64,000 nucleotides of DNA from Gammaproteobacteria bacterium (lineage in GTDB: Bacteria > Pseudomonadota > Gammaproteobacteria > G965277405): assembly GCA_965277405.1 (NCBI GenBank), contig OZ255726.1, positions 1,152,001 to 1,216,000 of the forward strand. Direction: 5' to 3'. Below, one piece after another: positions 13,136-29,740 of the stretch. The notes beneath the pieces are model-generated. The model saw nothing but the letters and a program-made list of their open reading frames with translations. It had not been told where the DNA came from and ran no database searches. The stretch's first letter is position 1, and every line of letters begins with the position of its first letter. The translations under genes and the position numbers were made by a program.

Positions 13136-13948
13136 CTATAGTTCTGCTCCCAGCCGAAACGACATCTTCCTGGCTATCTCCTGCACGCTGCGCACAATCA
13201 GATCCTCGCCATTTTTATCTACAGATTGCTGCGACAAGCTAACCGCAACTCCTGCAATTGGGCGGTTTTCGGAATTCAGTACGGACGCGCCGAAGCAAAT
13301 CATTCCATCTTTGACTTGCTGGTTGTCGATCGAATAGCCGCGTCCACGGATTTGTTTCAATTCACGCATAAGTTGTGAAAAATCCTGCACACTATGGTCA
13401 GTCAGCGGTTCAGGAAAACTGTTACCGATTAGTTTTCTGACCTCGGTGTCGCTCATGTAACTTAACAACGATTTTCCAGTTGCCGTGAACGCGGCAGGAA
13501 GGAGCATTCCGCTGTGAAAATCGAAGCCCACTGGCAATTTTGAGTTGCGGACAGCGAGATAGACCACCTCTGACCCTTCTAGAACCGAAAGCGTGATAGT
13601 GGCACCAGGTAGTTGGCTGCTTTCATCCAAGATCCTTACAAACTCAATTGCCAAATCAGATTCTTGGACGAACCGATTCGCCCAGCGCATGACATGTGGT
13701 CCCAAAAAATAGGTTTGACCCGTCCTGCAAACCAGTAAATTTAGCTCAATCAGTGTCTTGCATAGTCCATGAACGCTGCTTTTTGCTAAGCCAACCCTAG
13801 CAGCAATCTCAGTGATGGTCAGGTTTTGTTTTGACGTAGCAACAACGTCGAGAATACTCACCCCACGCGCTAGTGCCGGGACCAGTTTATGACTGCCCTC
13901 AAGTTTATTGAAAGTCGTTTGTGTTTTTTTAGTGCTTTTTATGTCCAA
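13136..13948 (-). CDS. IclR-family repressor, BlcR/AttJ-like
   Basis: VPALARGVSILD, LAKSSVHGL HTH, GPHVMRWANRF, TITLSVLEGSEVVY..RNS, LPAAFTATGK, RGYSID; recalled similarity to Agrobacterium BlcR. Confidence 0.88.
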   Translation of the reverse strand: MDIKSTKKTQTTFNKLEGSHKLVPALARGVSILDVVATSKQNLTITEIAARVGLAKSSVHGLCKTLIELNLLVCRTGQTYFLGPHVMRWANRFVQESDLAIEFVRILDESSQLPGATITLSVLEGSEVVYLAVRNSKLPVGFDFHSGMLLPAAFTATGKSLLSYMSDTEVRKLIGNSFPEPLTDHSVQDFSQLMRELKQIRGRGYSIDNQQVKDGMICFGASVLNSENRPIAGVAVSLSQQSVDKNGEDLIVRSVQEIARKMSFRLGAEL

Positions 13949-14176: not shown

Positions 14177-14566
14177 ATGGTAGATGAAGCGCGGGATTGG
14201 GTGATTAAGTTCAGTGAGGCATCCGACAATAATGCTACGATCGGTGCGATGTCGCGTTATTTCACCTGCACTTACATGTTAGACATGGAATATCGCCGCA
14301 TGATTGTTGAGATGATTGACGGCAAAGTATACCGTATCAATATTAACCCTAGCGGGATGGACGCCTATGATTTTGCGTTGAGAGCCAGTGCGGCGACATG
14401 GCGAGAATTTGCCCGCCCCATTCCGAAACCGATGTTCCATGGCATATGGTCAGCTAGCTTTCGTAAAGATTTAAAAATCGAAGGCAACACTTTGGTGCTG
14501 ATGCAAAATTTGCGCAATTTCACGATTCAGTTCGAATTGCTGCGCGTGGTTGGCGTGCCTGTATGA
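14177..14566 (+). CDS. Small hypothetical protein, possibly SCP2/sterol-carrier-like fold
   Basis: 129 aa ORF with DFALRASAATW...LKIEGN pattern reminiscent of SCP2-like domains; first gene of the operon. Confidence 0.55.
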   Translation: MVDEARDWVIKFSEASDNNATIGAMSRYFTCTYMLDMEYRRMIVEMIDGKVYRININPSGMDAYDFALRASAATWREFARPIPKPMFHGIWSASFRKDLKIEGNTLVLMQNLRNFTIQFELLRVVGVPV

Positions 14567-14608: not shown

Positions 14609-15463
14609 ATGGTAACTCATTCTCCCGTAACAGGACGATTTGTGACAATTGACGTCGATGGCTGTGAATACAAGGTGTTCTACTTACAAAACGGCAGTGG
14701 AGTGCCGTTGCTATGCCAGCATACGGCTGGCTGTCACAACCTCCAGTGGCGCGACCTGTTGGAAGACCATGAGATTACGTCCAGATATAACGTAATCGCA
14801 TACGACCTGCCACGCCACGGCAAATCTGATCCTCCTCACAACAAGGAATGGTGGAAGGAAGAGTACTTGCTGACAGCCGACCACTTTGTCAACTTCATCA
14901 TTAAACTATGCGACGCTCTGGAGCTTGATAATCCGATTTTTATGGGTTCATCGTTTGGAGGTAACGTTGCGTTGCAACTGGCGCTGCGCCATCCTGATCG
15001 TTTTCGCGCTGTCATTCCAGTTGAATCAGCCGAACATGCGCCAGGTTTCTACCTTGATCTGTGGCGTCATCCCCATGCAAATGCGGCACAGGTTTGTGCC
15101 AGTGGTGTTTGGGATCTTATGGCACCACAAAGCCCTGACTTGGATCGCTGGTTGACTTGGCATTATTATACTCAAGGCTCAGAAGCATTCAAAGGCGATC
15201 TGTATTTCTATTCGGTTGAACATGATTTGCGCGACAAGCTTGGACAAATAGACACCAGGCGCTGTCCCGTCATCATGATGACAGGAACCTATGACTATCT
15301 AACACCGCCCGAGGTCACCGAGGAGACAGCACGGAAAATTGCTGGCGGAATTTATATTGAGATGGAAGACATTGGGCATTTTCCTATGAGCGAGAATTAT
15401 CCTCTGTTCCGAGAATACCTGCGCGAGGCGCTGCGAATCATTGAGGATCGAACTGATGGATGA
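14609..15463 (+). CDS. Alpha/beta-fold hydrolase
   Basis: HTAG oxyanion loop, YDLPRHGKS, nucleophile elbow GSSFGG, catalytic GHFPM. Confidence 0.9.
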   Translation: MVTHSPVTGRFVTIDVDGCEYKVFYLQNGSGVPLLCQHTAGCHNLQWRDLLEDHEITSRYNVIAYDLPRHGKSDPPHNKEWWKEEYLLTADHFVNFIIKLCDALELDNPIFMGSSFGGNVALQLALRHPDRFRAVIPVESAEHAPGFYLDLWRHPHANAAQVCASGVWDLMAPQSPDLDRWLTWHYYTQGSEAFKGDLYFYSVEHDLRDKLGQIDTRRCPVIMMTGTYDYLTPPEVTEETARKIAGGIYIEMEDIGHFPMSENYPLFREYLREALRIIEDRTDG

Positions 15464-15499: not shown

Positions 15500-16426
15500 A
15501 TGAAGATTCTTGAATTTAACGAGCGTGGGCTGCAGGTCGAGCGGGATTCGAAATTGGTTCGTCAAATGGATTCGCTCAGCCATCTGGCGGTGCCACCAAA
15601 TCTGACACGGGCAGATCACGAACGACCTCACGTACAGTCAGACATGCAACTTTACATGTTCCAGACTGGCATCCTACGCACCAAAACTAAGTATATCAAG
15701 TTGAACCAAGGCGAGGAAAATTTCGAAATCCCAGTGCCGTGGTTCCTGATCAAGCATCGCAAGGGTATTGTGGTCATTGATGGTGGCAACGCCATTGAAG
15801 TTGCCATCGACAAGCGTGCGCATTGGGGGGCTGTTTGTGATACCTATGACCCAATTATGAACGTCGACGAAACCTGTGTCGAGCAATGTCGCTTGGTGGG
15901 GGTTGAGCCAGCAGATGTTCGTTTTGTAGTGCAGTCACATCTGCATCTAGACCATTCTGGTGCCGTGGGCCGGTTCCCCAACGCCCAGCATATCGTGCAG
16001 CGATTAGAGTATGATTATGCCTTCAACCCAGACTGGTTTTCCGCGGGAGCTTATATTCGAGCCGATTTTGACCGCCCAGGGTTAGATTGGAAATTTCTGG
16101 GAGGGGTGTACACAGATAATTTCGATCTGTTTGGTGATGGCACAATCCGCATGATCTTCACGCCAGGTCATTCGCCTGGGCATCAATCATTCTTGATTAC
16201 CCTACCGAACACCGGAGCTGTACTACTGACAATTGATGCAGCTTATACGCTGGATCATTGGCACGACAAGGCATTACCTGGGCTGAACTGCTCGGCTGTA
16301 GATACTGCCCACTCAGTCGCCAAGCTTCACAAAATTGCAAAAGACACCGGCGCAATCGTAGTCACTGGGCATGACCCGGATAACTGGGAGACGTTTCGAA
16401 AAGCCCCACGAGGTTTTTATGATTGA
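15500..16426 (+). CDS. attM: AttM/BlcC-type N-acyl-homoserine lactone / gamma-butyrolactone lactonase (metallo-beta-lactamase fold) with a ~45 aa N-terminal extension
   Basis: HLHLDH, TPGHSPGHQS, TIDAAYT, TGHD metal motifs; EIPVP.FLI.H, IDGGNAIEVA, GRFPNA.HIVQR match recalled Agrobacterium AttM throughout. Confidence 0.9.
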   Translation: MKILEFNERGLQVERDSKLVRQMDSLSHLAVPPNLTRADHERPHVQSDMQLYMFQTGILRTKTKYIKLNQGEENFEIPVPWFLIKHRKGIVVIDGGNAIEVAIDKRAHWGAVCDTYDPIMNVDETCVEQCRLVGVEPADVRFVVQSHLHLDHSGAVGRFPNAQHIVQRLEYDYAFNPDWFSAGAYIRADFDRPGLDWKFLGGVYTDNFDLFGDGTIRMIFTPGHSPGHQSFLITLPNTGAVLLTIDAAYTLDHWHDKALPGLNCSAVDTAHSVAKLHKIAKDTGAIVVTGHDPDNWETFRKAPRGFYD

Positions 16427-16531: not shown

Positions 16532-17713
16532 ATGAATATGCTTAAAATAAATCAACTTAAATCTATTGCCATGGCAATAGTGGGGCTGGCAATCAGTGCT
16601 GTCGCTACTGCAGGAGGGCTTGACGACATCGATCAGGAAGTGCGTGCGCGCTTGTATGACCCAGAAATGACTGACCCATCCCAACCAGTCGAGGCTAGCA
16701 TCTATGCTGACTTCGTGGCTAAAAACCCACCGCCTTGGACCATCGGCTACGCCAGTTCCTATGCTGGCAACACTTGGCGTGCTGGTGTCATGGCACAGTT
16801 GCAGAACGAAATCATTCCGCGCTGGCAAGAGCTTGGATTGATTAAAGAGGTTATTATCACGCAATCTAACCTCAAGGATGCTACCCAGATCCAACAGATG
16901 CGCCAACTGGTTGACCGGGGTGTCGATGCGATCATTGTGTGCTGTTCAAACCCAACCGCGCTGAATCAAACGGCAAAATATGCCTATGACCAGGGAGTGC
17001 CGACCTTCTCGCTGACGGGATATCTGACATCACCATACGCGGTAAATTCGTCGGTGAACTACCAGAAGGCTGGATTTGAAATTGGCAAATTGATGGCCGA
17101 ACAACTGAATGGTTCGGGCAACGTTCTTGTGGTTGAGGGTATCCCTGGCACATCTGGTTCTGACAGCCAAGATCGAGGTGTAAAGGCTGGCCTTGCCACG
17201 GCCGAAGGAGTTAAAGTTGTGGGATCTATTGCTGGAATGTGGACCGACCAGGTGGCCCAAGGTGAATTGCAGAAGTGGCTGGCAACACACCCAGGTAAAC
17301 TGGATGGCATCGTTGTCCAGTCTGCGGCTGAAATGGGCGTTTTGCGTGCACTAGCGCAATCTGGGCGCGACAACATCCCTGTTTCCATCGGTGGCGAACT
17401 GGGAGCGCTTTGCTACTGGCGCAACAACCCAGACTATATTTCAGCTGCAATCCAGACCTGGCCTCCGCAGGATGAGATAGAGCTTATCTGGGACATCATG
17501 ATGCGCACCCTCCAGGGACAAGGACCAAAGATACAATCTATCATGGTCGAGCCGGTGACTATTTCCTTTGACGAACTCAAAGGGGTCATGGGCAAGGATT
17601 GCAGCCAGAATACTGCCGACTGGCTACCCGTTGGCAAGGACAGATGGGGCGGGCAAGCCTATCTGGATGGGTTCTTCCTGCGCCCTGCCGATCCTACGGT
17701 TTACAAGCCTTAA
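16532..17713 (+). CDS. Sugar-type (RbsB-like) ABC transporter substrate-binding protein
   Basis: GGAGG SD, signal peptide, PWTIGYASSYAGNTWR, GVDAIIV, VEGIPG. Confidence 0.88.
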   Translation: MNMLKINQLKSIAMAIVGLAISAVATAGGLDDIDQEVRARLYDPEMTDPSQPVEASIYADFVAKNPPPWTIGYASSYAGNTWRAGVMAQLQNEIIPRWQELGLIKEVIITQSNLKDATQIQQMRQLVDRGVDAIIVCCSNPTALNQTAKYAYDQGVPTFSLTGYLTSPYAVNSSVNYQKAGFEIGKLMAEQLNGSGNVLVVEGIPGTSGSDSQDRGVKAGLATAEGVKVVGSIAGMWTDQVAQGELQKWLATHPGKLDGIVVQSAAEMGVLRALAQSGRDNIPVSIGGELGALCYWRNNPDYISAAIQTWPPQDEIELIWDIMMRTLQGQGPKIQSIMVEPVTISFDELKGVMGKDCSQNTADWLPVGKDRWGGQAYLDGFFLRPADPTVYKP

Positions 17714-17756: not shown

Positions 17757-17774
17757 TTATTTAGGTAAAATGCT

Positions 17775-19511
17775 ATGGCATTAGATCAAGCCAATTTAAT
17801 ACAAACGCCCGCCGCCCAAGTCACGATATCGGTTGTCAATGTCTCCAAGTTTTTTGGACCGACTCGTGCACTAGAAGGCTGCAGCTTTTCTGCGCGCGCC
17901 GGTGAAATTCACGCCATCGTGGGCGGTAACGGCAGCGGTAAAAGCACATTGGCAAAAATTGTTTCTGGTATATTGCCGATTGACCGTGGACAGGTCTCAA
18001 TTCTTGGAGAAACTCCGTCAACGCCAGCTGAAAGCCGCGCCATTGGGATTTCTACCGTCTATCAGGAAGTGCTAGTTGCTGACGAAAGCACGGTCGCCGA
18101 TAATTTGTTCATGGGCACAGACGCGCTTTTTTCTGCAAGCGTCTCTACACGCGACAAGGTTGATCGTGCCGCCACTCTTATGCACGAACTTGCTGGTGAA
18201 AAAGTTGACCCGTATGCATTGGTCGGTACTTTACCATTGGGAATCAAACAGTGGATCACCATCGGGCGCGGGTTGCTGCAAACACCACGTATTCTGATAC
18301 TGGACGAATCCTCGGCTGCCCTTGATTTTGACGGCACTGAACGGCTGTTCGCCAAGATACGAGAATCGCGCGATAATGGCACGACGGTCCTAATAGTGAC
18401 GCACCGCATTGCCGAATTGATCCGTATTTCTGACCGCGCTACGGTTTTGCGCGATGGTCGCGATGTCGGCGTACTTAAAAAAGCCGATATTACTGAAAAA
18501 AACCTGCTTGCCCTGATGACTGGTGAAGATCAAAGTGAAGCGCACCGCCATGTGACTGCCCCGCAACCGCTTGACCCGACACCGGTGATGCAGGTGCATG
18601 CATTGAAAGTTTGGAGCGATGCAGAAACTATGGATTTTGAGCTGTTGCAAGGAGAGATTGTTGGCATCGCTGGTCTTGACGGACACGGGCAGGACGAATT
18701 TGTGCGAATTTTGGCAGGGGTGATGCCTGCGGCAATAGGGAAGCCCATGGTTGCGGACCGCACAGGAATCTTGCAGCCGATTCAAACGCTAAGAGACGCG
18801 GTTAACGCTAAAATTGCCTACGTTTCAGGTGATCGTAAGCGCGAAGGAATCTTTGACTCCCTCAGCATTTTTGAAAATATGCTGATGCCACTTTACCGCG
18901 AGAAACGACGCGCGGGCAAATTAGGCATCATTGACTGGACAGCGCTGCGTGCAATTTTCAACCGCGAGGTTGAAACCCTGATGATCAAATTCGACTTAGA
19001 GAGCGACAAAATCACCTCACTATCTGGCGGCAATCAGCAAAAATTATTAATCGGTCGTGGCTTTGCCATGCGCCCGAATATTATCGTGCTGAATGATCCA
19101 GCTCGGGGCATTGATGTCGGGGCTAAATCAGAGCTTTACCAACATCTTCTGGGCTTTGCGCAAAGCGGTAAGTCGGTTATTTACATGTCGAGCGAATTGG
19201 AGGAGTTTATAGGCTTTGCCACGCGTGTTATCGTTTTTCGCAACGGCAGTCAGTTTGACGCTTTTGCAGGTGAATCTGTTGACGGCAAGAGCATTTTGGC
19301 AGCAATGTTCGGTCAGACCAATCGTTCTGGATTGAAAACCAGGAATGGTACTCCCGATAATTCGCCAAAAGCAACGCGCGCAACTAAGGACAAGCTAACT
19401 GTTGCCAGCGTGAGTCCGCAACTGGGAAATCCTCAAGTTGCGTCAAGACCAAGTATAAAAATTCTTGAATTCGGTCAGGCCGGAGAAAAACGCCAGATGT
19501 ATACAAAATGA
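17775..19511 (+). CDS. Sugar-type (RbsA-like) double-domain ABC ATPase with a ~65 aa C-terminal tail
   Basis: Walker A GGNGSGKST, ILDE, VTHR, second domain LSGGNQQK, GIDVGAK. Confidence 0.92.
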   Translation: MALDQANLIQTPAAQVTISVVNVSKFFGPTRALEGCSFSARAGEIHAIVGGNGSGKSTLAKIVSGILPIDRGQVSILGETPSTPAESRAIGISTVYQEVLVADESTVADNLFMGTDALFSASVSTRDKVDRAATLMHELAGEKVDPYALVGTLPLGIKQWITIGRGLLQTPRILILDESSAALDFDGTERLFAKIRESRDNGTTVLIVTHRIAELIRISDRATVLRDGRDVGVLKKADITEKNLLALMTGEDQSEAHRHVTAPQPLDPTPVMQVHALKVWSDAETMDFELLQGEIVGIAGLDGHGQDEFVRILAGVMPAAIGKPMVADRTGILQPIQTLRDAVNAKIAYVSGDRKREGIFDSLSIFENMLMPLYREKRRAGKLGIIDWTALRAIFNREVETLMIKFDLESDKITSLSGGNQQKLLIGRGFAMRPNIIVLNDPARGIDVGAKSELYQHLLGFAQSGKSVIYMSSELEEFIGFATRVIVFRNGSQFDAFAGESVDGKSILAAMFGQTNRSGLKTRNGTPDNSPKATRATKDKLTVASVSPQLGNPQVASRPSIKILEFGQAGEKRQMYTK

Positions 19512-19524
19512 GCTAAACATCCAT

Positions 19525-20922
19525 ATGACTCAGTATCACGAAGACTACAAACGACAAGACGGAGGTGTTTCAAGCTCCTACCTGCTGGTGCCTATATCTG
19601 TGTTGTTCATCCTGCTAATTGCCGCTGTGATCAGGTCGCCATCATTGATTTCCAGTTCCGGCATCGGGGCGGCAATTATTGTGTCGGCGCCGCTTATTCT
19701 GGCGACCTATGCGCTGATGGTAAATGCCACCTCTGGGCGTGGCACAATTGATCTATCGGTCGGCCCGCTAATTGGTTTTATTAATGTAACCATCATCCAG
19801 TTGACGGCATCTGGGATTATCGGATCACCGATTTCAATATTCCTGTTCGCCTTGATGGTTGGTATTGCTTATCAACTAGTGATGGGGCTGATCATCATCT
19901 TTGTGCGGGTGCAGCCTATAATCGTGTCGCTAAGCGGGTTTCTGGCGCTTGCTGGCATCAATCTAGTTATCCTGCCCCGTCCTGGCGGGCTAGCACCACA
20001 GTGGATGCTGTCTTGGGGTGCTGGCACAACAATATTGTCGCCAGTTCTGTGGATTTTGGTTGTGGCGACACTAGGGTGGTTGCTCTTCACCAGAACCGCA
20101 TTTTACACCCATCTGCGGTTGATGGGGTCTGACGAACGCGCGGCCTATACCAGTGGTGTTCCCATCACCATTGTCCGCCTTGGAGCGCATGTAATTGCAG
20201 GAATATTCAGTGGGTTGGCGGCAATCACCTTTACCTCGCTCATTAGTTCTGGGGATCCAAGCCAAGGCACGACCTATACCCTTATTGCGGTGACAGCACT
20301 GGTTCTGGGTGGCACCTCACTAGCTGGAGGTCGGGGCACGGTCATAGGGTCGTTGTGCGGGGCGGTGAACCTGTATCTGATTACATATGTTTTAGCAACC
20401 TTCAACTTTGGCGCGGTACAAAGTTTTGTGACGGATCTGGCCTATGGCTTGATACTGGTTGCGTCGCTGTTGCTCACACTAGCCCTGCCGTTCATCCAAC
20501 GCCATATTCGTAATTTCTCTCCGTTACTCTACTTTGTGGTTCTTGCGGTTGTGGCGTTTGGAGTCATTCTGCATGCCACCTTCGACTACGATGCGTTGCG
20601 TCTAGCAGTGTCGGCACAGGAGGGATCAGGCGCCATTGTGGCCGCGTCGTTCGAACCTGCGAATTTTGCAGGTCCATTCGAAACCGCGCTGCTGAGCAAC
20701 AGTGACACCAAGCTGCGTAGCTATGCCAGACCAATGATCCTAGCTGGATTGCTGCTTATTCTGATTCCAGTTTTGTTGCGCGTCTTAGTTTCGCAATCCA
20801 ATCGCCGTGATATCGGGCCGCTGGTCGCTCTTGTCATCGCCGCGCTGGTTCTGCTGAGCGGCTATTTCCTCAGCCGCAGTCCAGAACTGCCATTGCTAAC
20901 TAAAACGCAGGTTTCACAATGA
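19525..20922 (+). CDS. ABC transporter permease (RbsC-like) with C-terminal extension
   Basis: IDLSVG, G.DERAAYTSGV EAA-like loop, LVLGGTSLAGGRGT; extra TMs at the C-terminus; start uncertain. Confidence 0.87.
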   Translation: MTQYHEDYKRQDGGVSSSYLLVPISVLFILLIAAVIRSPSLISSSGIGAAIIVSAPLILATYALMVNATSGRGTIDLSVGPLIGFINVTIIQLTASGIIGSPISIFLFALMVGIAYQLVMGLIIIFVRVQPIIVSLSGFLALAGINLVILPRPGGLAPQWMLSWGAGTTILSPVLWILVVATLGWLLFTRTAFYTHLRLMGSDERAAYTSGVPITIVRLGAHVIAGIFSGLAAITFTSLISSGDPSQGTTYTLIAVTALVLGGTSLAGGRGTVIGSLCGAVNLYLITYVLATFNFGAVQSFVTDLAYGLILVASLLLTLALPFIQRHIRNFSPLLYFVVLAVVAFGVILHATFDYDALRLAVSAQEGSGAIVAASFEPANFAGPFETALLSNSDTKLRSYARPMILAGLLLILIPVLLRVLVSQSNRRDIGPLVALVIAALVLLSGYFLSRSPELPLLTKTQVSQ

Positions 20923-22301
20923 CGAATTCTATGGCGCGTACCAGAGAAAACGGCACCTTGCTGGCGAGACTAATCGGTCTTGTTCTAGCGATTTCCTTGG
21001 CTGGGACTGGCGTGATTATCGGCTTTGTGCAGGACCAACCAGCGCAACAGGTCATCCTGTATGCCGTGGCAACATTGGCCCTGTCTGCATGGGCGTGGCG
21101 GTATTTTCTATTGCAGTTCCACAGTTTAGAACACAATGGTGGTTCGGTTGACGAACTAGGAGCGCTGCGCCTGACATGGAAAAAATACCGCTATGGTGCG
21201 CTCGGGGTTACGATTCTGTTGCTGAGCTTTATTACTCTGTCGCTGACAATCAACGGGTTCTTCAGTCTCTGGAGCGTCCTCTCTGCGCTGATTCTGCTGG
21301 TTATTCTGTTGGTGACACTAACCGTCGGGAAATTCGTTTCAGAAAACAAAAGTGCGTTTATTGGGCTTATGGTTCTGGTCGGGATGTTTTCAATAGGCTC
21401 TATGAATATCGAAGGGTTTTCTGCTGCGAACAACATCAAGTCGATGCTGTTGTTCGCGGCCTTCCTTGGGCTGGCCAGTGTCGGGCAAACACTCGTCGCT
21501 CTGCTAGGCGGGCTTGATTTGTCGATTCCGTTTGTGATCGGCTCGGCCAATGTTGGGCTGCTGTACATGATCAGCATCGGTGTTCCACCGTGGCTGGCAA
21601 CAATCCTAACGTTACTACTGGGGGCGATTGTTGGGGCGATCAACGGAATCATGAGCTTTCGCCTCCAGGGACAGGCGCTGATTTTGACACTTGGTATGGG
21701 GTTTGCGATTTCGGGAGGTACTCAGATACTGACATCAATCGGGACGGCATACAGCGGCAATGTGTTTGCAACTGTGCCAGGATGGCTTAGCAACCTGTCC
21801 GCCATGAATGGGAACACCTTTGGAATGTCATTCCCGCCAGTCATCGCCATATGGGTTTTGGTGGCGATAGTCCTAATAGTGGGCATGCGGCATACGGTTG
21901 CCGGTCGTTATTTGTATGCGCTGGGGGTCAACCGTGTTTCGGCAAGCCGCGTTTCGATATCAGAGCGGGTTTACTGGGTCGTGATGTATACCCTCAGCGG
22001 GTTCTTTTCAGCGATGACTGGTGCCTTGTTGCTGGGCTGGAGCGGCGGCGGATTTATCGGTGTCGGTGACAATTACCTGTTTATGACGCTAGCAGCAGTG
22101 GTTGTCGGGGGTACTTCGTTGCTGGGGGGGATAGGCGGCTATGGATTCACGGTGATTGGGGTGCTCGTACTACAGGTTCTAACGTCATTCCTTGTTGGTA
22201 TCGGGCTGAATTTTGAATGGCAGCAATTCATCTTTGGTCTGCTCATTCTACCGATGGTGGCGCTGTATGCGCGCTCACCTCACATACGCACACAGATTTA
22301 G
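20919..22301 (+). CDS. ABC transporter permease (RbsC-like) with N-terminal extension
   Basis: GQTLVALLGGLDLS, GRYLYALGVN, AAVVVGGTSLLGG; ATGA overlap with the previous gene. Confidence 0.87.
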   Translation: MTNSMARTRENGTLLARLIGLVLAISLAGTGVIIGFVQDQPAQQVILYAVATLALSAWAWRYFLLQFHSLEHNGGSVDELGALRLTWKKYRYGALGVTILLLSFITLSLTINGFFSLWSVLSALILLVILLVTLTVGKFVSENKSAFIGLMVLVGMFSIGSMNIEGFSAANNIKSMLLFAAFLGLASVGQTLVALLGGLDLSIPFVIGSANVGLLYMISIGVPPWLATILTLLLGAIVGAINGIMSFRLQGQALILTLGMGFAISGGTQILTSIGTAYSGNVFATVPGWLSNLSAMNGNTFGMSFPPVIAIWVLVAIVLIVGMRHTVAGRYLYALGVNRVSASRVSISERVYWVVMYTLSGFFSAMTGALLLGWSGGGFIGVGDNYLFMTLAAVVVGGTSLLGGIGGYGFTVIGVLVLQVLTSFLVGIGLNFEWQQFIFGLLILPMVALYARSPHIRTQI

Positions 22302-22350
22302 AAAAAACGCTTATGAAACATAGATATACTAGCAATATTGGGAGGACACT

Positions 22351-23109
22351 GTGAACCCTCCGATCCTTGCAACCATTGATCTAACTGGCGCCAGTTATTC
22401 TGCGACTCTTTTGGGCTTGATCGCCACAACAGTATTGCTGCTGATGGGAACTGGCTGGGTCGCACGGGGCTGGAAATTGCCAGTAACGCTGTGTGCCGTG
22501 GCAGCTCTTGTCGGGGCGCTGGCATTGTTTGAAGCCCGTCATGTATGGCTAATCACAGCCGAAGTGCCAATAGTTTATCACTATGTTGGCTGGTTTATTT
22601 CAATGCCGCTGCAAGTGATGGCCTTGTATTTTCTGGCGCGCCAAGTTGTGGCGTTATCGGTTGCGCTGTTTTGGCGTTTAATCGTTACTTCGATGCTGAT
22701 GATCCTAGTGCGATATCTAGGTGAGGCAGGTTTCATGCATGCAACGCTGGCATTTTTGATTGGTATTGTTTTCTGGCTGTATATTTTGGGCGAGCTTTTC
22801 TTCGGGCGGGCGAACGAAGCTATTTTTAAAAGCTCGAACCCCTGTATTCAGCGTGGATATTTCTGGTTACGGCTGATCGTGACCGTTGGCTGGGCGGTAT
22901 ACCCGCTTGGCAATTTCATCACTAGTTTCGGTGGCTATGTCGATCATGGCGGGTTGAGCGTTACCTATAATATTGCTGACTTCCTGAATCGGATGGCATT
23001 TGGGCTGGCTGTATTGGCAACCGCAATCTTTGCCGCCGCGGAGGATGTGGCATGCCTGGTGCCAAGTGCGGGTAACAAGAAAACTACACAACTGGAGAGA
23101 CGGCAATGA
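22351..23109 (+). CDS. Proteorhodopsin-like 7TM opsin lacking the retinal-binding lysine (flotillin-associated rhodopsin type)
   Basis: GGAGG SD plus GTG start; collinear with proteorhodopsin: PIVYHYVGWFISMPLQ (PTVFRYIDWLLTVPLL), YLGEAG, WLYILGEL, GWAVYPLG, YNIADFLNRMAFGL (YNLADFVNKILFGL). Confidence 0.88.
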   Translation: MNPPILATIDLTGASYSATLLGLIATTVLLLMGTGWVARGWKLPVTLCAVAALVGALALFEARHVWLITAEVPIVYHYVGWFISMPLQVMALYFLARQVVALSVALFWRLIVTSMLMILVRYLGEAGFMHATLAFLIGIVFWLYILGELFFGRANEAIFKSSNPCIQRGYFWLRLIVTVGWAVYPLGNFITSFGGYVDHGGLSVTYNIADFLNRMAFGLAVLATAIFAAAEDVACLVPSAGNKKTTQLERRQ

Positions 23110-24809
23110 ACGGAGCAGACATCATCGCAATCATTATTCTGGCGGCAATAGTTATTGCCGTACTCGCCTATCTTCTTCACTGGCTTTACCGCCATTCCAG
23201 CAAGGACATCTCTTTTGTGCGAACTGGATTTCGTGGTGAAAAAATCATCATGGGTGGTGGAGCATTGGTGCTGCCAATCGTACATGACCTGACTGAAGTC
23301 AACATGAACACGCTGCGTCTGGAAGTGCTCCGGGCGCGTGAGAAATCATTGATCACCAAGGATCGGATGCGGATTGAGCTGGAAGTCGAGTTTTACGTAC
23401 GTGTCATCCCGACTAAAGACGCAGTAGCAACTGCAGCTCGCACATTGGGCAAGCGCACGATGAACCCAGAAAGCCTGCGTGATCTCATTCAAGGACGCTT
23501 TGTCGATGCAATGGGAGCGGTTGCTGCATCCATGGCAATGGAAGAAATTCACGAAAACCGATCGACATTCATCAAGGCAATTCGAACCGAGGTTGCCGAC
23601 AGTCTGAGCATGAACGGACTGGAGCTAGAAACAGTTTCGCTAACTTCGCTTGAGCAAACCGATATCAAGCTATTTAACCCATCAAATGCTTTCGACGCAG
23701 AGGGTCTGACCCGCCTGACCGAGGAAATCGAAAAGCGCAAGAAAAAACGTAATGACATCGAGCAGGACACCATGATCGCGATTCGCGAGAAAAATTTGGA
23801 GGCGGAAAAACTCACTTTGAATATCCAGCGCGACAGCGAATACGCCCGCCTTGCCGAAGACAGCGAAGTAGCGATGCGCCGGGCTGAGCAAAAGACTAAA
23901 GTCGAACAAATGAACGCCGCTAAAGAGCGTGAGATTGAGATAGCAAGACTTATCGAGCGTGAAGAAGTCGAGTGTCGCCGTATCCAGATGGAACAAAAAC
24001 TTGAGGCCATGGAAATCAAACGTCAGGAGGCCCGCGAACTTGATGAGCAACAACGCGAGATCGCAGTATCTATTAAATCCAAGGAACGCTCTGAGGCGCA
24101 GGTGCAAGCGGAAACTACCCGTGCAACAATGATGGAAGCACGGGAAAAAACCCACACTGTGCGTGACATGGAAATAGCAAACCGACTCAAAATGGTAGAG
24201 TTGGTTGCTGCCGAGAAGGAGGCCGAGCGTCAGGCAATCGGTGTCAAAACGCAGGCTGAAGCGGAAAAGTCAGCCGCATTAGATCGAGCGGAGGCAGACC
24301 GGATTGCGGTTGCGGCATTGCAACAACGGCTTGCCGTTGAGGCCGAAGGCAAGCGCGCGCTTAATGTGGCAGAAAACCTACGTTCGGATGCCAGCCGTAA
24401 AAGCGCGCTGCACCAGCGTCTGGTGGAAAATCTGCCCGATATAATCCGCGAAAGCGTCAAGCCGATGGAAAAAATCAACGAAATCAAGATTGTCCATGTC
24501 GAAGGACTGCCTGGTCTATCCCGCGGCGGTAGCAACGATGGCTCAAGCAACGCAGATGGTAGTGCCCCACGCGACGGCAATCTTGCCGATCAGGTGGTGA
24601 ATTCGGCCTTGCGATATCGTGCGCAGGCGCCGTTTGTCGACACGCTGCTAGGAGATATCGGCATGTCTGGTGAAAACATCCACCGGATGGAAGGTCTACA
24701 GGACTTATCCAAGATTATCTATACCGAACCCAGCGGAGCAAAACCTGCTGAACCTGCGCAGCCTAAAGTAAAAAAAACAAATAATCTTGCAAATAATCTT
24801 GCAGAATAG
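23106..24809 (+). CDS. Flotillin/SPFH (band 7) family protein
   Basis: N-terminal TM, FVRTGFRGEK...GGALVLP, LITKDRMR..VEFYVRV, LELETVSLT, FNPSNAFDAEGL, Ala/Glu coiled coil, LPDIIRESVKPMEKI. Confidence 0.93.
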   Translation: MNGADIIAIIILAAIVIAVLAYLLHWLYRHSSKDISFVRTGFRGEKIIMGGGALVLPIVHDLTEVNMNTLRLEVLRAREKSLITKDRMRIELEVEFYVRVIPTKDAVATAARTLGKRTMNPESLRDLIQGRFVDAMGAVAASMAMEEIHENRSTFIKAIRTEVADSLSMNGLELETVSLTSLEQTDIKLFNPSNAFDAEGLTRLTEEIEKRKKKRNDIEQDTMIAIREKNLEAEKLTLNIQRDSEYARLAEDSEVAMRRAEQKTKVEQMNAAKEREIEIARLIEREEVECRRIQMEQKLEAMEIKRQEARELDEQQREIAVSIKSKERSEAQVQAETTRATMMEAREKTHTVRDMEIANRLKMVELVAAEKEAERQAIGVKTQAEAEKSAALDRAEADRIAVAALQQRLAVEAEGKRALNVAENLRSDASRKSALHQRLVENLPDIIRESVKPMEKINEIKIVHVEGLPGLSRGGSNDGSSNADGSAPRDGNLADQVVNSALRYRAQAPFVDTLLGDIGMSGENIHRMEGLQDLSKIIYTEPSGAKPAEPAQPKVKKTNNLANNLAE

Positions 24810-24853
24810 GCTGGCTCTGCCTGTTCTGAAAGACTGACAAGGAGGCAATCAAG

Positions 24854-25279
24854 TTGGAAACATCACAAAAAATTGAACGTGGTATCATTGTATTCTGTAA
24901 CTGGACGGTGTTCGGACTGGTCGGGCTCGGTTTGCTGATGGAAGGCGGTGCGCGCGACAGTTTTTTGCTTGGATCGGTCGGGGTCGGCAGCATCATCGTC
25001 GGATTTTCTGGTCATATCTTAGTTAATTCAATTTTCCAACAATCCTTTACCTTGGGTGAGACGGTGCTAGGGCTGGGATTGTTCGCAATATTTGTACTGA
25101 CATTTATTGCATTATGGATTGGTGGAGGGTTATCGAGGGTAGATTTTAATATAGGGCTGAGTCTGTTGGCAGTCCTTGTGGCCGAGTTCTTGGTGTATGT
25201 GATCAGCCGCTATGGCTTGCGCGGCGCGTTCAAGCGCTTTGACGTTATCCCGACAACTGGGTTAGGAAACGGGAAATGA
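24854..25279 (+). CDS. Small 4-TM membrane protein of unknown function
   Basis: AGGAGG SD plus TTG start; four hydrophobic segments; ATGA overlap with the next gene. Confidence 0.75.
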   Translation: METSQKIERGIIVFCNWTVFGLVGLGLLMEGGARDSFLLGSVGVGSIIVGFSGHILVNSIFQQSFTLGETVLGLGLFAIFVLTFIALWIGGGLSRVDFNIGLSLLAVLVAEFLVYVISRYGLRGAFKRFDVIPTTGLGNGK

Positions 25280-27231
25280 GCCAGTCTGACCCTAAGGTAT
25301 GGTTGGCGCTGTATTTTCTGGTCTACTGCGCCTTGTCCCTATTTTGGGCACGCCGGTCTGCTTTACTCAATGATGGTCCTGCGGGATTCTTTGTGGCGAA
25401 TAATGCTCTGCCAGTCTGGGTCGTGGCATTGGTCATGACAGGGGCCAGTCTGTCGGGCTGGGTAGTGCTAGGTTTTCCAGAAATAATTGCAACGCAAGGA
25501 TTTGGTTTTGCCATGCTTGGGTTGGCAGGAATTATCTTGCCGCTTGCTGGGGTGTTGTTTTTCAAACGTCAGTGGCTGCTGGGGCGGCATTTTAGCATAT
25601 CCAGTCAGGGCGTCCTGTTTACTCGGCATTTCGGTGGCTGGGGTCTTTCGGTGATTTCAGCGGGTATTGCCGTAGTGTTTGCCATAGGGTTCAGCGGCAT
25701 GCAGCTGCGAGCATTAGGGGGTATTCTGGCGCAGGCTTCTGGGGACATGTTAAATGCTGCGACCATCATCTGGGCCATTTCATTATTGCTATTCTCCTAT
25801 GTGGTGATCGGTGGAATGCGCGCAATTGGCTATCTTGGTGCCATGCAAACGGTTTTAATTGGGCTGTTTATAGTCGGGCTAACTGTTTTGCTGCTGGTAA
25901 CCTCGGATGGTTTTTCTGCTTTGAACCAGCATCTTGCGGCAATATCGCAGTCTGGCAAGGCGCAGCAAACCAATCTATTTCAGGTAGCAGGCGTCATTCA
26001 GTTTACCGCTGGTATTGGCCTTGAAAACCCAGTGGGTGGCCAATGGAGCGCGGTGATGATTTTGAGCACTGCAATGACGCTGATGGGGTTTCAGGCCAGT
26101 CCAATGGCCACCCAGTTAATTTTGAGCGCGCGCGGTGCGAACGGGCTTGCGGCCGGACAGACATGGGTGATGGCAGCTGTTTTTGGTGGATTTGTAGTCT
26201 TTGGAGTTATTCTAATCGGTGCACAAGGTCTGGTTGCAGGTGACAGCACCGTGTTGGGGAGCATGCTGGCGCAGTTGGGGTTTGATTCTCCTTGGTTTAT
26301 GGCCTCACTATCATTAGGGGCCGTTGCGGCGGTACAAATTGTAGCGGGTCTCAGCCTGTTGAGTGCAGCCACGGCATTGGTATGCGACATCTACATTCCT
26401 TTTTTTCATAAAGGACTGGGAGCGACCCGCGCAGTTTTGCTGGCCCGCATTCTTGTTGGGTTATTACTGTTGACTTCGATTCTTCTTGCCTTGTTGGACC
26501 CGGTCAGTCTCTCGTCTATCGGCGCGATTGCCTTGCCGATCGCATTTCAACTCTGGCCTGCCTTGCTTGGTCTGTGCTGGTTGCGCTGGATCAGCCGTCA
26601 AGCTGCCACGGCAGGAGTCGTAATCGGAATTTTAGCGGTGTTGGTGACAGATAAGCTGGGTGGTGATGTGCTTGGTTTTCTTGGACTTAATCTGCCATGG
26701 GGACGATGGCCTTGGACGATTCACTCGGCTGCGTGGGGGATGTTTTTCAATCTTCTGGCTGTTGTCACGATTTCGGCAATCACCTTGGGACGTGGACATT
26801 CTGCAACTGCGCCGCAAATGTGGGACTTTCTACGCCAACACGCTCCAGTTAGTGTTGAAGCCCGCGCGCTGAAAGCTGTGGGCTGGTCGGTAATTCTGGC
26901 ATGGTTTTTTCTGGCACTTGGTCCTGGTATAGTGCTGGCAAATCAGGCGTTTGGTACGGCTGGCGCAGGAATTGCAGGCTGGCGTGTCACAATGCCGTCG
27001 CTTTGGGCGTGGTCCCTTGTGTTCTGGGTGCTGGGCGTGTTGCTGATCTGGTTTCTGTCTTATCGACTGGAATTGGCGACTGCCCCCACCAAGGACATTC
27101 CACTGGCGGTAGATCAGCCCCGCCTACCAGCTACCAACACTCGTATGCAGGAGGGCGAGCTGGTTCGCCTCGTTCGCACTGTTGCAATCATTGCCAGTGG
27201 CATTGCACTCGTCGTCTGGATTTTCGGCTGA
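25276..27231 (+). CDS. Sodium:solute symporter family protein
   Basis: >12 TMs, FFVANNALP.W, SLSGW...G.P, YVVIGGMRA, DIYIP. Confidence 0.85.
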   Translation: MSQSDPKVWLALYFLVYCALSLFWARRSALLNDGPAGFFVANNALPVWVVALVMTGASLSGWVVLGFPEIIATQGFGFAMLGLAGIILPLAGVLFFKRQWLLGRHFSISSQGVLFTRHFGGWGLSVISAGIAVVFAIGFSGMQLRALGGILAQASGDMLNAATIIWAISLLLFSYVVIGGMRAIGYLGAMQTVLIGLFIVGLTVLLLVTSDGFSALNQHLAAISQSGKAQQTNLFQVAGVIQFTAGIGLENPVGGQWSAVMILSTAMTLMGFQASPMATQLILSARGANGLAAGQTWVMAAVFGGFVVFGVILIGAQGLVAGDSTVLGSMLAQLGFDSPWFMASLSLGAVAAVQIVAGLSLLSAATALVCDIYIPFFHKGLGATRAVLLARILVGLLLLTSILLALLDPVSLSSIGAIALPIAFQLWPALLGLCWLRWISRQAATAGVVIGILAVLVTDKLGGDVLGFLGLNLPWGRWPWTIHSAAWGMFFNLLAVVTISAITLGRGHSATAPQMWDFLRQHAPVSVEARALKAVGWSVILAWFFLALGPGIVLANQAFGTAGAGIAGWRVTMPSLWAWSLVFWVLGVLLIWFLSYRLELATAPTKDIPLAVDQPRLPATNTRMQEGELVRLVRTVAIIASGIALVVWIFG

Positions 27232-27252
27232 TTGTAAAATGAGAGAAACCAT

Positions 27253-28410
27253 ATGAATCCTTTTGTCTTCAACACATCACCCAGCATCCGCTTTGGTGCT
27301 GGTCAGCTGTCGCAGCTTGGTGAAATCGTCAAAGCCGAGATCGGCGATCACATTCTGTTAGTGACGGATCATGGAATAATCGCGACTGGCATCGTAGATC
27401 GTGCCCTCGCAGCATTGAATTCTGCTGGCATTGAAGTCACGGTGTTCAGCGATGTGCAGGCCGACCCGCCTGAAACAATTGTATTGCAGGCAACCCAGGC
27501 TGCAATCAACTCTGAGGTCCAAGGCATTGTCGGCCTTGGCGGGGGTTCTTCCCTTGATGTTGCCAAGTTGGCTGCCCTGCTCGCACTGGGTCGGGAGGAG
27601 TTGAAGGATGCCTATGGCATTGGCAACGCTATTGGACCGCGCCTGCCACTAATCCTTGTTCCAACCACCGCCGGTACTGGGTCCGAAGTGACGCCTATCT
27701 CTATTGTAACTACAGGTGCTTGCGAAAAGATGGGGGTGGTTTCACCCGTGATACTGCCTGATATCGCGCTGCTAGACCCAGACCTGACGCTGGGTTTGCC
27801 TGCGCATATTACTGCGGCCACCGGCATTGATGCCATGGTGCATGCGATCGAGTCCTATGCCTCGGCCAGTTCAAATAACAACCCTATATCCCGCAATCTA
27901 GCGACACAAGCATTACGCCTGATGGGGGGAGCACTCGAGACTACCGTACATAACGGTAGTAATGTCGAGGCCCGCGCCAATATGCTGCTAGGTTCGATGC
28001 TAGCGGGTCAAGCATTTGCCAATTCGCCTGTTGCCGCGGTTCACGCGCTTGCATATCCTATCGGCGGGTATTTTCATGTTCCGCATGGTTTATCCAATGC
28101 GCTGGTACTGCCTCATGTGCTGCGCTTCAACACTAAAGTCGCGCCACAGCCTTACGCTGAAATGGCACCTTATGCCTTTCCTGATCTGGCACGACTGCAA
28201 GGACAAGAACTCGCCGAAGCATTCTGCGATGCTATGGAGGATCTTTCAAAACGCTGCGGATTGCAACAAACACTTCGCGAAATGGATATACCTCGTGATT
28301 TCCTGCCAAAACTGGCCAGTGCCGCAATGAACCAGACCAGATTGCTGGTCAATAACCCACGGAAAGTCCACGAGGTTGATGCGCTCTCAATTTATGAAGC
28401 CGCCTGGTAA
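27253..28410 (+). CDS. Iron-containing alcohol dehydrogenase, BlcB/AttL-like (4-hydroxybutyrate dehydrogenase-like)
   Basis: GLGGGSSLD, PTTAGTGSEVT, GIDAMVHAIE, HALAY, HVPHGLSN. Confidence 0.9.
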   Translation: MNPFVFNTSPSIRFGAGQLSQLGEIVKAEIGDHILLVTDHGIIATGIVDRALAALNSAGIEVTVFSDVQADPPETIVLQATQAAINSEVQGIVGLGGGSSLDVAKLAALLALGREELKDAYGIGNAIGPRLPLILVPTTAGTGSEVTPISIVTTGACEKMGVVSPVILPDIALLDPDLTLGLPAHITAATGIDAMVHAIESYASASSNNNPISRNLATQALRLMGGALETTVHNGSNVEARANMLLGSMLAGQAFANSPVAAVHALAYPIGGYFHVPHGLSNALVLPHVLRFNTKVAPQPYAEMAPYAFPDLARLQGQELAEAFCDAMEDLSKRCGLQQTLREMDIPRDFLPKLASAAMNQTRLLVNNPRKVHEVDALSIYEAAW

Positions 28411-28769: not shown

Positions 28770-29740
28770 TGCGCTTAACAGGTCGTTCGTTGATCTATTG
28801 ATGAACTTCGTTTTGCTGTGTTTTGCGCAACGTGGGGCGTTGCGCTCAATTCACGGCATTGCTTGGCATTGCTTGACAAGGCCTTTGGTGTCGTATTTCT
28901 TGTCCGCTGCCAATGTCACTTGGCGATTTCCTGGAATATTGGCTAGCATTTCTATCGCAGCATCGGTTGCAGCGGTGCCGCTGAACTGTTTGCTATGTGC
29001 GTCTACCACCAAACCATTGCGGTCCTCAATCATAATATTGCCCACGTAACACGGTATTGCCGCTTGGCCTTGGCTTTTCTTGCCAAAGCGCGCTTCTGGA
29101 TCTGTGGTAGATTGGTGGGTAGCGCGGTGGCGTTTCTTGCCTTTAACATCAATCCGTTTGTTGCTGCTGCCATAATTGTGGTCATCGTCGTCTTTCATGT
29201 GGAAGCTTTTCACTGATGCCAGCGCGTATAGTAATGTTCCATCCACACTGAAATGTTCGTCTGCAAGAAGACCTGCTGTTTCAGCCTGTTGTTTGATGCG
29301 AATGAAAAACTTAACAGCAGTATTTCCCGCAAGAAGACGATCGCGGTTTTTGGTGACGGTTGAGTGATTCCAAATACCATCATCCATACAAAAACCGACA
29401 AACCAACGGAACATCAGGTTATAGCCAATTTGCTCCATCAACGCACGTTCGCTGCGGATCGTGAAAAGCGCCATCAACAACTGGGCACGCAATAATTTCT
29501 CTGGTGGTATACCTGCTCGTCAGCTTGGGGCATACAAAGTATTGAAGTGGCCGTTCATCTCCTACAACGCCACATCGACCATTTTCTTGATATGGAGAAT
29601 TGGGTGATTTTGGGGTACTGCGCTTGCAGCGATAGGGTGCTGAACATTCTAGCTTGGGTGAAATCAGTTCCTCGTATCGAATTATCTCAGGAAAATAAAC
29701 ATTATACCTTATTAAGGAAGGGGTGTGTTTTTCAACAGCC
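28770..29740 (-). pseudogene. IS5-family transposase pseudogene with left IR
   Basis: IRSERALMEQIGYNLMFRWFVG, KNRDRLL, HFSVDGTL, HQSTTDPEAR, ADKKYD; frameshifted 5' part, truncated 3' part; IR GGCTGTTGAAAAA ends at 29740 next to TTAG. Confidence 0.85.

Follow-up and report, generated by a model that had tools for sequence, protein, structure and literature searches.

The window analysed here, a stretch of 64,000 nucleotides from contig OZ255726.1 (positions 1,152,001 to 1,216,000) of the gammaproteobacterial genome assembly GCA_965277405.1, carries a cluster of twelve genes on the forward strand, headed by a divergent regulator gene, in which the gene of a microbial rhodopsin is directly followed by that of a flotillin. 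The rhodopsin, hereafter referred to as FAR (flotillin-associated rhodopsin), has Arg214 in place of the Schiff-base lysine of proteorhodopsins. The genes around it encode a lactonase, an ATP-binding cassette (ABC) importer with extended permeases, a sodium:solute symporter and a dehydrogenase; the original prediction, made from the letters of the sequence, had named these neighbours, and matches to Pfam and NCBIfam families bear it out. The reading preferred here, to which about even chances are given, is that FAR, together with the flotillin, serves in the membrane as a retinal-free, light-independent accessory to the unusual ABC importer whose genes directly precede it, within an operon of the blc/att type.

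The FArhodopsin family was named by Haro-Moreno et al. in 2023, with flotillin as its constant neighbour, and most of its freshwater members were reported to lack the lysine and to carry Gln, Thr, Leu or Arg instead; flotillins are described in the same paper as scaffold proteins of membrane microdomains (PMC10308929). PsFAR, for which solved structures exist, is a pentamer (Kovalev et al. 2025) and binds no retinal, as H84 and E120 fill the pocket, which is collapsed into small water-filled cavities (10.1101/2025.04.29.651185). Since Lys-less, Arg-bearing FArhodopsins and their pairing with flotillin are already in print, the core observation is not new. What is added here is that the cluster is of the blc type, that it is mobile and occurs on plasmids and in bacteria that can be cultivated, that no partner rhodopsin is present and that FAR is coupled to an extended ABC permease.

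The FAR gene begins with a GTG codon, has the ribosome-binding site GGGAGG 6 nt upstream and encodes 252 amino acids. Its assignment to the proteorhodopsin family as a seven-transmembrane protein, proposed originally, is upheld by a Pfam Bac_rhodopsin match well above the cut-off (24.6 bits) and by a seven-helix AlphaFold2 (AF2) model. The codon of Arg214 is CGG (22990-22992), two changes away from AAG, and the replacement of the Schiff-base lysine at this site is confirmed by alignment with PsFAR and with proteorhodopsins, the helix-G motif NIADFLNR pairing with DFLNK of PsFAR and with DLINK of a proteorhodopsin in HMMER alignments. An alignment with 54 full-length cluster representatives (50% identity) was used to map further sites; positions 58, 77, 80, 84, 91, 210 and 214 hold A, H, G, S, A, D and R, where the proteorhodopsin consensus is H, R, D, T, E, D and K. 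These correspond to residues which we take to be H75, R94, D97, T101, E108, D227 and K231 of proteorhodopsin, and the mapping given in the original prediction (H75A, R94H, D97G, T101S, E108A, K231R, with D227 kept) is exactly reproduced. The offset of this numbering is consistent with K232 as numbered in PMC11322631. FAR cannot form a retinal Schiff base, and it is expected to have no retinal chromophore.

The best solved relatives of FAR are the PsFAR structures 9r21 and 9r23 (E 1e-49, 172.6 bits), ahead of the best solved proteorhodopsin, 4jq6 (E 3.4e-40, 141.4 bits). The AF2 model, built from a 21-row alignment (predicted local distance difference test score, pLDDT, 85; predicted TM-score, pTM, 0.81), superposes best on PsFAR (TM 0.87/0.92, root-mean-square deviation 1.6 Å, 36% identity), and the top 50 Foldseek matches of the model are all microbial rhodopsins, the retinal-free proteoopsin structure 8cnk included. 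In a maximum likelihood tree of 49 rows, the bootstrap of which had not fully settled, a 12-row FAR clade stands apart from the DTE-type proteorhodopsins (support 97/88). Within it, the Lys-bearing representative P0248, with PsFAR as its best solved match (E 7.8e-95), is the sister of the Lys-less clade (support 100/99) that holds the FAR of the window. FAR is thus a member of the FArhodopsin family and of its Lys-less subclade, and the phylogenetic check proposed with the original prediction places it away from DTE-type proteorhodopsins.

Relatives of FAR were sought at several levels. A search of 1.84 billion cluster representatives gave 684 matches at E <= 0.001, of which 22 reach E <= 1e-30, and a word-indexed protein search gave 781 matches at E <= 1e-10 among 8000 scored; identity to FAR ranges from 60 to 100% among the 120 of these 781 that were listed, and [D/E]xxNR stands at the helix-G site in 111 of 122 proteins, a set in which the flotillin, the query and a database entry identical to it are counted. 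Among species-representative genomes, a scan yielded 402 pattern matches, 391 of them encoding a FAR relative, from which the best 80 loci were kept. These are mostly alphaproteobacterial, with culture-collection strains and plasmids among the carriers. Residue frequencies were counted over 79 FAR sequences (the window and 78 loci). Position 214 is Arg in 69, Gln in 10 and Lys in none, and position 77 is His in 65, Arg in 11 and Gln in three, while position 121, which corresponds to E120 of PsFAR and is Gly in proteorhodopsins, is Arg in all 79. The constant residue of the Lys-less subclade is therefore Arg121 rather than Arg214. Position 85, equivalent to H84 of PsFAR, is Met in 62 of the 79 and never aromatic, so that the pocket of FAR may be less filled than that of PsFAR. 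Twenty-two polar or aromatic positions are kept in at least 97% of the sequences.

Ratios of nonsynonymous to synonymous substitution rates (dN/dS) were calculated as medians of pairwise Nei-Gojobori (NG86) values for pairs with 0.1 < dS < 1.5. The median for FAR is 0.23 (1768 pairs), which shows that the gene is under purifying selection and not in decay, and the values of the other eleven cluster genes lie between 0.08 and 0.35. In all 78 loci with a callable open reading frame (ORF), the frame is unbroken. The neutral decay that had been named as an outcome contradicting the original prediction was thus not seen.

The flotillin comprises an N-terminal anchor (its single hydrophobic segment, residues 6-24), an SPFH domain, a long coiled coil and a Flot domain. 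It scores 68 bits against the NCBIfam FloT equivalog model, below the cut-off of 700, and is assigned as a flotillin by its Pfam Flot and Band_7 matches alone; its median dN/dS is 0.17. The flotillin gene lies directly 3' of FAR on the same strand in 78 of the 80 loci, and the remaining two loci stop at a contig edge. The predicted ATGA junction was found in the window at 23106-23109, where the flotillin ATG (23106-23108) overlaps the FAR stop codon TGA (23107-23109). Such a 4-nt overlap is seen in only two of the 78 loci with both ORFs called, the usual spacer being 30-69 nt (two of the 78 values are artefactual), and it is not a family trait. Apparent fusions were examined and rejected: the FAR-flotillin fusions in loci L054 and L069 show a stop codon between the two genes on translation, the permease-FAR fusion in P0259 (a permease tail joined to a rhodopsin head) looks frame-shifted, and the long representatives P0311, P0281, P0300, P0304 and P0271 contain rhodopsin domains only.

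The two permeases that precede FAR are extended beyond their BPD_transp_2 cores. Permease 1 has three extra hydrophobic segments after the core (351-369, 424-442 and 450-468) and permease 2 has three before it (19-37, 93-111 and 114-132); their median lengths in the related loci are 472 amino acids (76 loci) and 457 amino acids (77 loci), respectively. The distribution of the extensions was surveyed in 151 genomes of the order to which the Ensifer adhaerens carrier belongs and in 201 of that of the Roseovarius carrier. In the former sample, permease 2 homologues reaching into the extension (query start 7-79) were found in six genomes, all six of them adjoining FAR; three other genomes have permease 2 homologues with 59-60% identity that start at query residue 141-142, and none of these has FAR. 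In the latter, an extended permease 2 occurs in two genomes, the same two that have an adjacent FAR. The N-terminal extension of permease 2 is thus present in 8/8 sampled genomes with adjacent FAR and absent from 3/3 FAR-less homologues, and FAR-less relatives of permease 1 align to residues 9-339 or 52-327 only. Extension and FAR-flotillin occur together, in a pattern that is clean in this small sample. Two of these FAR-less loci, L104 (G141:C21:47000-66900) and L105 (G139:C21:1-16000), both from the order of the Ensifer carrier, are sister clusters with permeases of normal length. One of them has a hydrolase like the g02 product of the window (40% identity), binding protein, ATPase, permease 1 (aligned over 9-339), permease 2 (138-460) and a succinate-semialdehyde dehydrogenase (SSADH, 61%), and the other has a similar run of genes. 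They may represent the importer as it was before FAR-flotillin joined it, or as it exists in the absence of the pair.

The association extends to FARs that keep the lysine. A metagenome scan with the Lys-bearing P0248 as query gave 16 loci, in 14 of which a D-x-L-N-K helix-G motif is readable. Where the flank suffices, the gene order in these Lys-type clusters is binding protein, ATPase, an ORF of 212-233 amino acids, permease 1 (714-738 amino acids), permease 2, FAR and flotillin, followed by g01, g02, the symporter, an ORF of 135-158 amino acids and an N,N-dimethylformamidase-like protein (PF20254). Next comes AttM (70% identity; L099, L100) or an iron-containing alcohol dehydrogenase (Fe-ADH) on the opposite strand (40-41%; L094, L096). 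Permease 2 aligns from residue 7-35 in seven of the loci, and the extension is thus present there. Identities between the Arg-type cluster of the window and the Lys-type clusters are 36-43% for FAR, 80-85% for g02, 62-69% for g01, 57-60% for permease 2 and 70% for AttM. The order of binding protein, ATPase, permease 1, permease 2, FAR and flotillin is kept in both cluster types, while the other genes shift. The dimethylformamidase-like protein (785-792 amino acids, with PF20254 and Laminin_G_3) was seen in L096, L098, L099, L100 and L106 (G111:C1:776000-795900), and an IS66 transposase lies at the left edge of L099.

The features of the window are collected in Table 1. Presence of the twelve cluster genes in the 80 related loci was scored by tblastn with the proteins of the window (at least 50% of the query covered, E <= 1e-10), several of the misses being due to loci cut by contig ends. 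The genes were found in the following numbers of loci: g01, 73; g02, 73; AttM, 67; binding protein, 72; ATPase, 74; permease 1, 77; permease 2, 78; FAR, 80; flotillin, 78; g10, 73; symporter, 74; and Fe-ADH, 52. Order and strand are unchanged in nearly all 80 loci. A homologue of the IclR-family regulator (at least 60% coverage) occurs in 62 of the 80, in most of them divergent and directly upstream of the cluster. The linkage is therefore not unique to the host genome, such uniqueness having been named as part of an outcome that would speak against the original prediction; it is syntenic in the 80 loci and present also around Lys-type FARs.

Table 1. Coordinates (positions in the window) and assignments of the genes of the FAR-flotillin cluster and of the features at its edges
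Feature	Position	Strand	Basis
IclR-family repressor, BlcR(AttJ)-like, divergent	13136..13948	-	Pfam IclR_C, HTH_IclR; 3mq0 best solved relative
g01, 129-aa soluble protein	14177..14566	+	weak SCP2 likeness, E 0.046, 14.5 bits (cut-off 21.3)
g02, alpha/beta-fold hydrolase (esterase/enol-lactonase-like)	14609..15463	+	Pfam Abhydrolase_1, 79 bits
AttM/BlcC-family metallo-beta-lactamase-fold lactonase	15500..16426	+	NCBIfam NF045700 AttM, 429.6 bits
Periplasmic substrate-binding protein, CUT2-type ABC importer	16532..17713	+	Pfam Peripla_BP_4, 122 bits
ABC ATPase, two nucleotide-binding domains	17775..19511	+	Pfam ABC_tran, two stretches
ABC permease 1, C-terminal extension of ~150 aa	19465..20922	+	BPD_transp_2, residues 78-332 of 485
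ABC permease 2, N-terminal extension of ~140 aa	20919..22301	+	BPD_transp_2, residues 173-444 of 460
FAR, Lys-less (Arg214) flotillin-associated rhodopsin	22351..23109	+	Pfam Bac_rhodopsin, 78 bits; PsFAR 9r21, E 1e-49
Flotillin: N-terminal anchor, SPFH domain, long coiled coil, Flot domain	23106..24809	+	Pfam Flot, 112 bits; Band_7, 53 bits
g10, 141-aa membrane protein, four hydrophobic segments	24854..25279	+	stop overlaps symporter start
Divergent sodium:solute symporter, 651 aa	25276..27231	+	Pfam SSF, 25.7 bits (cut-off 22.8)
Iron-containing alcohol dehydrogenase, candidate BlcB/AttL-like hydroxy-acid dehydrogenase	27253..28410	+	Pfam Fe-ADH, ADH_Fe_C
IS5-family transposase fragment	28851..29492	-	Pfam DUF772, DDE_Tnp_1; NCBIfam IS5, 121.6 bits (cut-off 140)

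Several lines of evidence point to a lactone pathway of the blc/att type. The lactonase passes the AttM model NF045700 (cut-off 390) and matches a solved N-acylhomoserine lactonase (9kho) at E 3.1e-109. The best solved relative of the regulator, 3mq0, is the 'Transcriptional repressor of the blcABC operon' (E 6.9e-55, 189 bits), the second-best being far behind (E 4.4e-22, 82 bits). Downstream of the alcohol dehydrogenase (ADH), an aldehyde dehydrogenase is encoded in 32 of the 80 loci and, with 707 bits, exceeds the cut-off (646) of the SSADH model TIGR01780; a zinc-containing ADH occupies the ADH slot in 13 of the 80. Because the regulator is nearest to BlcR and an SSADH follows the ADH in those 32 loci, an operon for lactone and gamma-hydroxybutyrate use is a fair label. 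In blcABC (attKLM), gamma-butyrolactone is converted through gamma-hydroxybutyrate to succinic semialdehyde under repression by BlcR (PMC5924552). The cluster is predicted to be an operon of this type, leading from a lactone through a hydroxy acid to succinate semialdehyde. It resembles blcABC of Agrobacterium in its BlcR-like IclR regulator, its AttM/BlcC lactonase and its Fe-type ADH, in being often plasmid-borne and, in those 32 relatives, in the SSADH. It differs from blcABC in having at least seven extra genes between lactonase and dehydrogenase (ABC importer, FAR, flotillin and two-part symporter), in having g01 and g02 in front of the lactonase and, in the copy of the window, in lacking the SSADH. 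Counted over the whole cluster, nine further genes are added to the blc-type core, namely g01, g02, the four ABC genes, FAR, flotillin and the two-part symporter.

The g02 product, with weak matches to the PcaD enol-lactonase model and to solved esterases, is encoded by the most conserved gene of the cluster (median dN/dS 0.076), with identities of 79-89% in most Arg-type loci. The g01 product is 62-85% identical in most of the loci that have it, adjoins g02 in Lys-type clusters, and has no Pfam or NCBIfam match at 0.01; an SCP2 fold was considered for it and set aside as a weak lead, the AF2 model having a pLDDT of 58 and no Foldseek match at E <= 0.001, with SCP2 proteins at ranks 10 and 36. 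The nearest solved relatives of the binding protein are the CUT2 sugar-binding proteins 4rs3 and 5hko (E 2.5e-20), and the ATPase matches sugar-type ATPase models, all under their cut-offs. The symporter has a weak match to the VC_2705 large-subunit model and is 29-33% identical in Lys-type loci; g10, for which no Pfam or NCBIfam family match was found, is likely to be its small partner. The true start of AttM is probably internal, downstream of the listed one, as homology begins at about residue 48. The listed start of permease 1 is probably also too far upstream, since the ORF overlaps the ATPase gene by 47 nt. A scan for promoters and terminators between 12400 and 30000 gave counts not clearly above those of shuffled sequences (27 against 19.3 +/- 4.9 and 18 against 20.7 +/- 5.3). 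Of the sequencing runs listed as containing this stretch, three from a single study are of DNA type and none is of RNA. Between a tRNA-Pro(GGG) gene and the cluster lie the gene of an ECF-type sigma factor and then that of an NrsF-like anti-sigma factor (11032-12502).

The host is placed by sequence comparison as a deep-branching gammaproteobacterium that has acquired the cluster horizontally. Its PheT (7993-10404) has best database matches of 40-42% identity, the named ones being Gammaproteobacteria, and the 60 related genomes compared are kin of it at class level only, none of them having the cluster. The single rhodopsin match among these class-level kin (G039, 32% identity) was rejected as a FAR locus, no cluster gene lying within 40 kb of it. 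The cluster proteins share 69-85% identity with their counterparts in uncultured Hyphomicrobiales (L002, L003), or 57-61% for g10 and the symporter, and 46-89% with those in other Alphaproteobacteria; these identity levels and the carrier taxa suggest an alphaproteobacterial donor. The GC content of the cluster is 0.513 in a genome of 0.448, and it falls from about 0.52 to 0.43 at 28400. An IS5-type element (28782-29700) marks the right edge, its transposase ORF matching part of the IS5 profile only, and the genome contains four further copies (93-97% identity), of which one is split. The SSADH gene that follows the ADH gene in the closest relatives is missing from the cluster of the window, and the host genome has aldehyde dehydrogenases elsewhere, the best of 50% identity. 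Integration linked to the tRNA-Pro gene (10745-10821) was considered and rejected, as no repeat of it of at least 12 nt occurs within 12000-31000.

The host genome (one contig, 2,174,577 bp, 98.3% complete) has one Bac_rhodopsin match, which is FAR itself; the word 'paralog' used in the original prediction is therefore wrong here, since no second rhodopsin is encoded. Retinal genes had been reported absent from the window, and for phytoene synthase this now extends to the whole 2.17-Mb genome, in which no SQS_PSY match was found (control positive in 8/14 genomes). No match to BCD/blh or to heliorhodopsin was found in the host genome either; the controls were silent for both, and these blanks accordingly say little. 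Ensifer adhaerens Lc04, Rhizobium aquaticum DSM 29780, Ciceribacter selenitireducens ATCC BAA-1503, Roseovarius litoreus DSM 28249 and Hoeflea alexandrii each have a single Bac_rhodopsin match, at the FAR locus, and all five isolates do carry genes of the SQS_PSY family. Many FAR carriers are soil or rhizosphere isolates, and in Rhizobiaceae, Roseovarius, Hoeflea and Martelella the module is found in strains from culture collections and on plasmids. An Arg-type FAR was found on five plasmid records (62-72% identity), and the RefSeq annotation of a 123-kb Hoeflea plasmid agrees with the layout of the window, reading IclR, hypothetical protein, alpha/beta hydrolase, attM, ABC genes, bacteriorhodopsin, flotillin-domain protein, two hypothetical proteins and iron ADH. 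The statement that FAR producers are all uncultivated, made in 10.1101/2025.04.29.651185, is thus outdated. The plasmid records CP070278.1 (Dysgonomonadaceae bacterium zrk40, 246,192 bp) and NZ_CP066788.1 (Martelella lutilitoris, 246,197 bp) show the same Arg-type FAR match and come from similar sources, and the organism label of one of the two is probably wrong.

SPFH operons pair a scaffold with a membrane partner, as in HflK/C with FtsH and flotillin with NfeD. The FAR-flotillin pair is like them in that a scaffold gene adjoins the gene of an integral membrane protein, which suggests a scaffold-client pair in which the role of the partner is taken by an opsin fold. No NfeD-family match was found in the host genome (control positive in 11/14 genomes). 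Three further SPFH (Band_7) genes occur in the host genome, at C1:406640-408201 and C1:1849911-1850417, two of them adjacent like hflK/hflC.

When compared with described systems, the FAR of the window is like FArhodopsins in belonging to the proteorhodopsin family with PsFAR as its closest relative, in having flotillin directly downstream and in the absence of an expected chromophore. The FArhodopsin cluster reported in 2023 includes a translocator, a sodium symporter, hydrolases, an Fe-ADH and a dimethylformamidase (main text of PMC10308929), and the present one shares with it an 'inner membrane translocator', a sodium symporter, an alpha/beta hydrolase and an Fe-ADH. Within that main text, to the exclusion of the supplementary tables, lactonase, lactamase, IclR, ABC and Rhizob- are unmentioned, and a literature search returned no paper linking rhodopsin, flotillin and lactonase. 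Unlike the marine FArhodopsins, FAR is the only rhodopsin of its genome and not a paralog, and unlike the published hosts, which are uncultured streamlined plankton, the carriers include Alphaproteobacteria in culture, from soil, rhizosphere and sea, whose genomes measure 3.9-7.1 Mb, as well as plasmids. PsFAR differs from the present protein at the H84 position, which here is mostly Met, and at the E120 position, which here is an invariant Arg, and the present cluster adds a BlcR-like repressor and an AttM lactonase. Rh-noK is likewise a microbial rhodopsin fold without the Schiff-base Lys; it is xanthorhodopsin-related and encoded in tandem with a functional rhodopsin gene, whereas FAR is proteorhodopsin-related, has no rhodopsin neighbour and carries an invariant pocket Arg.

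On the preferred reading, the operon would import a compound of lactone or ester type, or the hydroxy acid derived from it, possibly of the gamma-butyrolactone or 4-hydroxybutyrate kind. AttM and the alpha/beta hydrolase would open the compound, the ADH would oxidise the product and the SSADH, in the many relatives that have it, would lead it towards succinate, with the BlcR-like repressor controlling the operon. The flotillin scaffold would hold a FAR oligomer as its integral-membrane partner, and the two may dock on the extended permeases or organise them, perhaps together with the symporter, into a membrane patch, thereby supporting the assembly or activity of the importer and perhaps that of the symporter. 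A bolder form, in which the opsin fold has become a fixed, retinal-free uptake subunit that is caged or tethered by flotillin, docked on the extra permease helices and needed for the uptake of lactone-derived compounds, possibly with a ligand bound through Arg121 in the former retinal pocket, is put forward tentatively and is considered less likely than not.

Several observations weigh against the preferred reading. The co-occurrence of the permease extension and FAR rests on 11 genomes that are kin and not independent of one another, and no fusion of FAR with flotillin or permease was found at E <= 1e-20 among 8000 candidates, in what was a weak search. The study of the PsFAR structure saw 'no obvious evidence' of adaptation towards flotillin (10.1101/2025.04.29.651185), and the aromatic residue at the H84 position, said to be universal in FARs, is replaced by Met in 62/79 of the present sequences. 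On the side of the pathway, the Fe-ADH falls under every equivalog cut-off (ErcA, 300 bits against 550; 4-hydroxybutyrate dehydrogenase, 249 against 500), no SSADH follows the ADH in the cluster of the window, where the IS5 fragment lies instead, and the binding protein resembles sugar binders with no obvious fit to butyrolactone or 4-hydroxybutyrate.

Of the other explanations considered, the one given most weight, at roughly one chance in five, is that FAR binds a small molecule: the former retinal pocket, net-positive owing to R121 and R214 and to the absence of a D97 equivalent, would hold a carboxylate or an amphipathic lactone-derived ligand and would serve as receptor, gate or hand-over site. 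There is a precedent in a retinal-free proteoopsin, where decanoate occupies the retinal pocket and its carboxylate forms a salt bridge with the Schiff-base Lys (PMC11322631). R121 is found at a pocket position in all 79 sequences, Met, which is more flexible, stands in place of the aromatic plug (H84) of PsFAR, and the metabolites of the operon are small carboxylates. The carboxylate site of R214 and H77 suggested in the original prediction is weakened, however, as position 214 is Gln in 10/79 and position 77 is Arg or Gln in 14/79, R121 being invariant instead; moreover, the pocket of PsFAR is collapsed, and a binding protein and a BlcR-like sensor are already encoded in the operon. Somewhat less weight is given to the possibility that FAR and flotillin form a general membrane-conditioning module, which would adjust the fluidity of the bilayer or protect it during the degradation of solvent-like or amphipathic lactones with no specific contact to a transporter. 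The role of flotillins as scaffolds of membrane microdomains (PMC10308929), the travelling of the pair with lactone-degrading enzymes in both cluster types and the lack of fusion evidence would all agree with it, but it leaves unexplained the fixed place of the pair after permease 2, the FAR-linked extra permease segments and the need for an opsin fold.

Two further explanations are given almost no weight. FAR has been proposed, for marine genomes that always hold a proteorhodopsin paralog, as a partner that tunes or supports the proton-pumping proteorhodopsin in dim light (PMC10308929). The FAR described here lacks the Lys and is the sole rhodopsin in 6/6 genomes, the host and the five named carriers, many carriers live in soil or the rhizosphere, and the host has no phytoene synthase match; hence the proteorhodopsin-helper idea cannot apply here. 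That FAR is a decaying, hitch-hiking remnant in the operon might be thought from the loss of the Lys and of the proton-transfer residues, yet its dN/dS is no higher than those of its neighbours allow, the 78 callable loci all keep an intact frame, the 22 polar or aromatic positions are retained and the AF2 model is of pLDDT 85, which makes this explanation just as improbable.

Returning to FAR as an accessory of the importer, its link with the extended permeases gives a concrete partner to look for. Because strains from culture collections carry the module, as do plasmids, it is open to knock-outs and induction tests, and because the operon appears to be of the blc type with a BlcR-like repressor, candidate inducers and substrates can be named. 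The function of FArhodopsins thus becomes testable at the bench in bacteria that can be grown and mutated, where both FAR papers worked from uncultured plankton. If the bolder form, with FAR as a fixed subunit of the uptake machinery, is true, a light-independent function would for the first time be assigned to a rhodopsin fold in bacteria, and a bacterial flotillin would have its first defined client in a catabolic operon.

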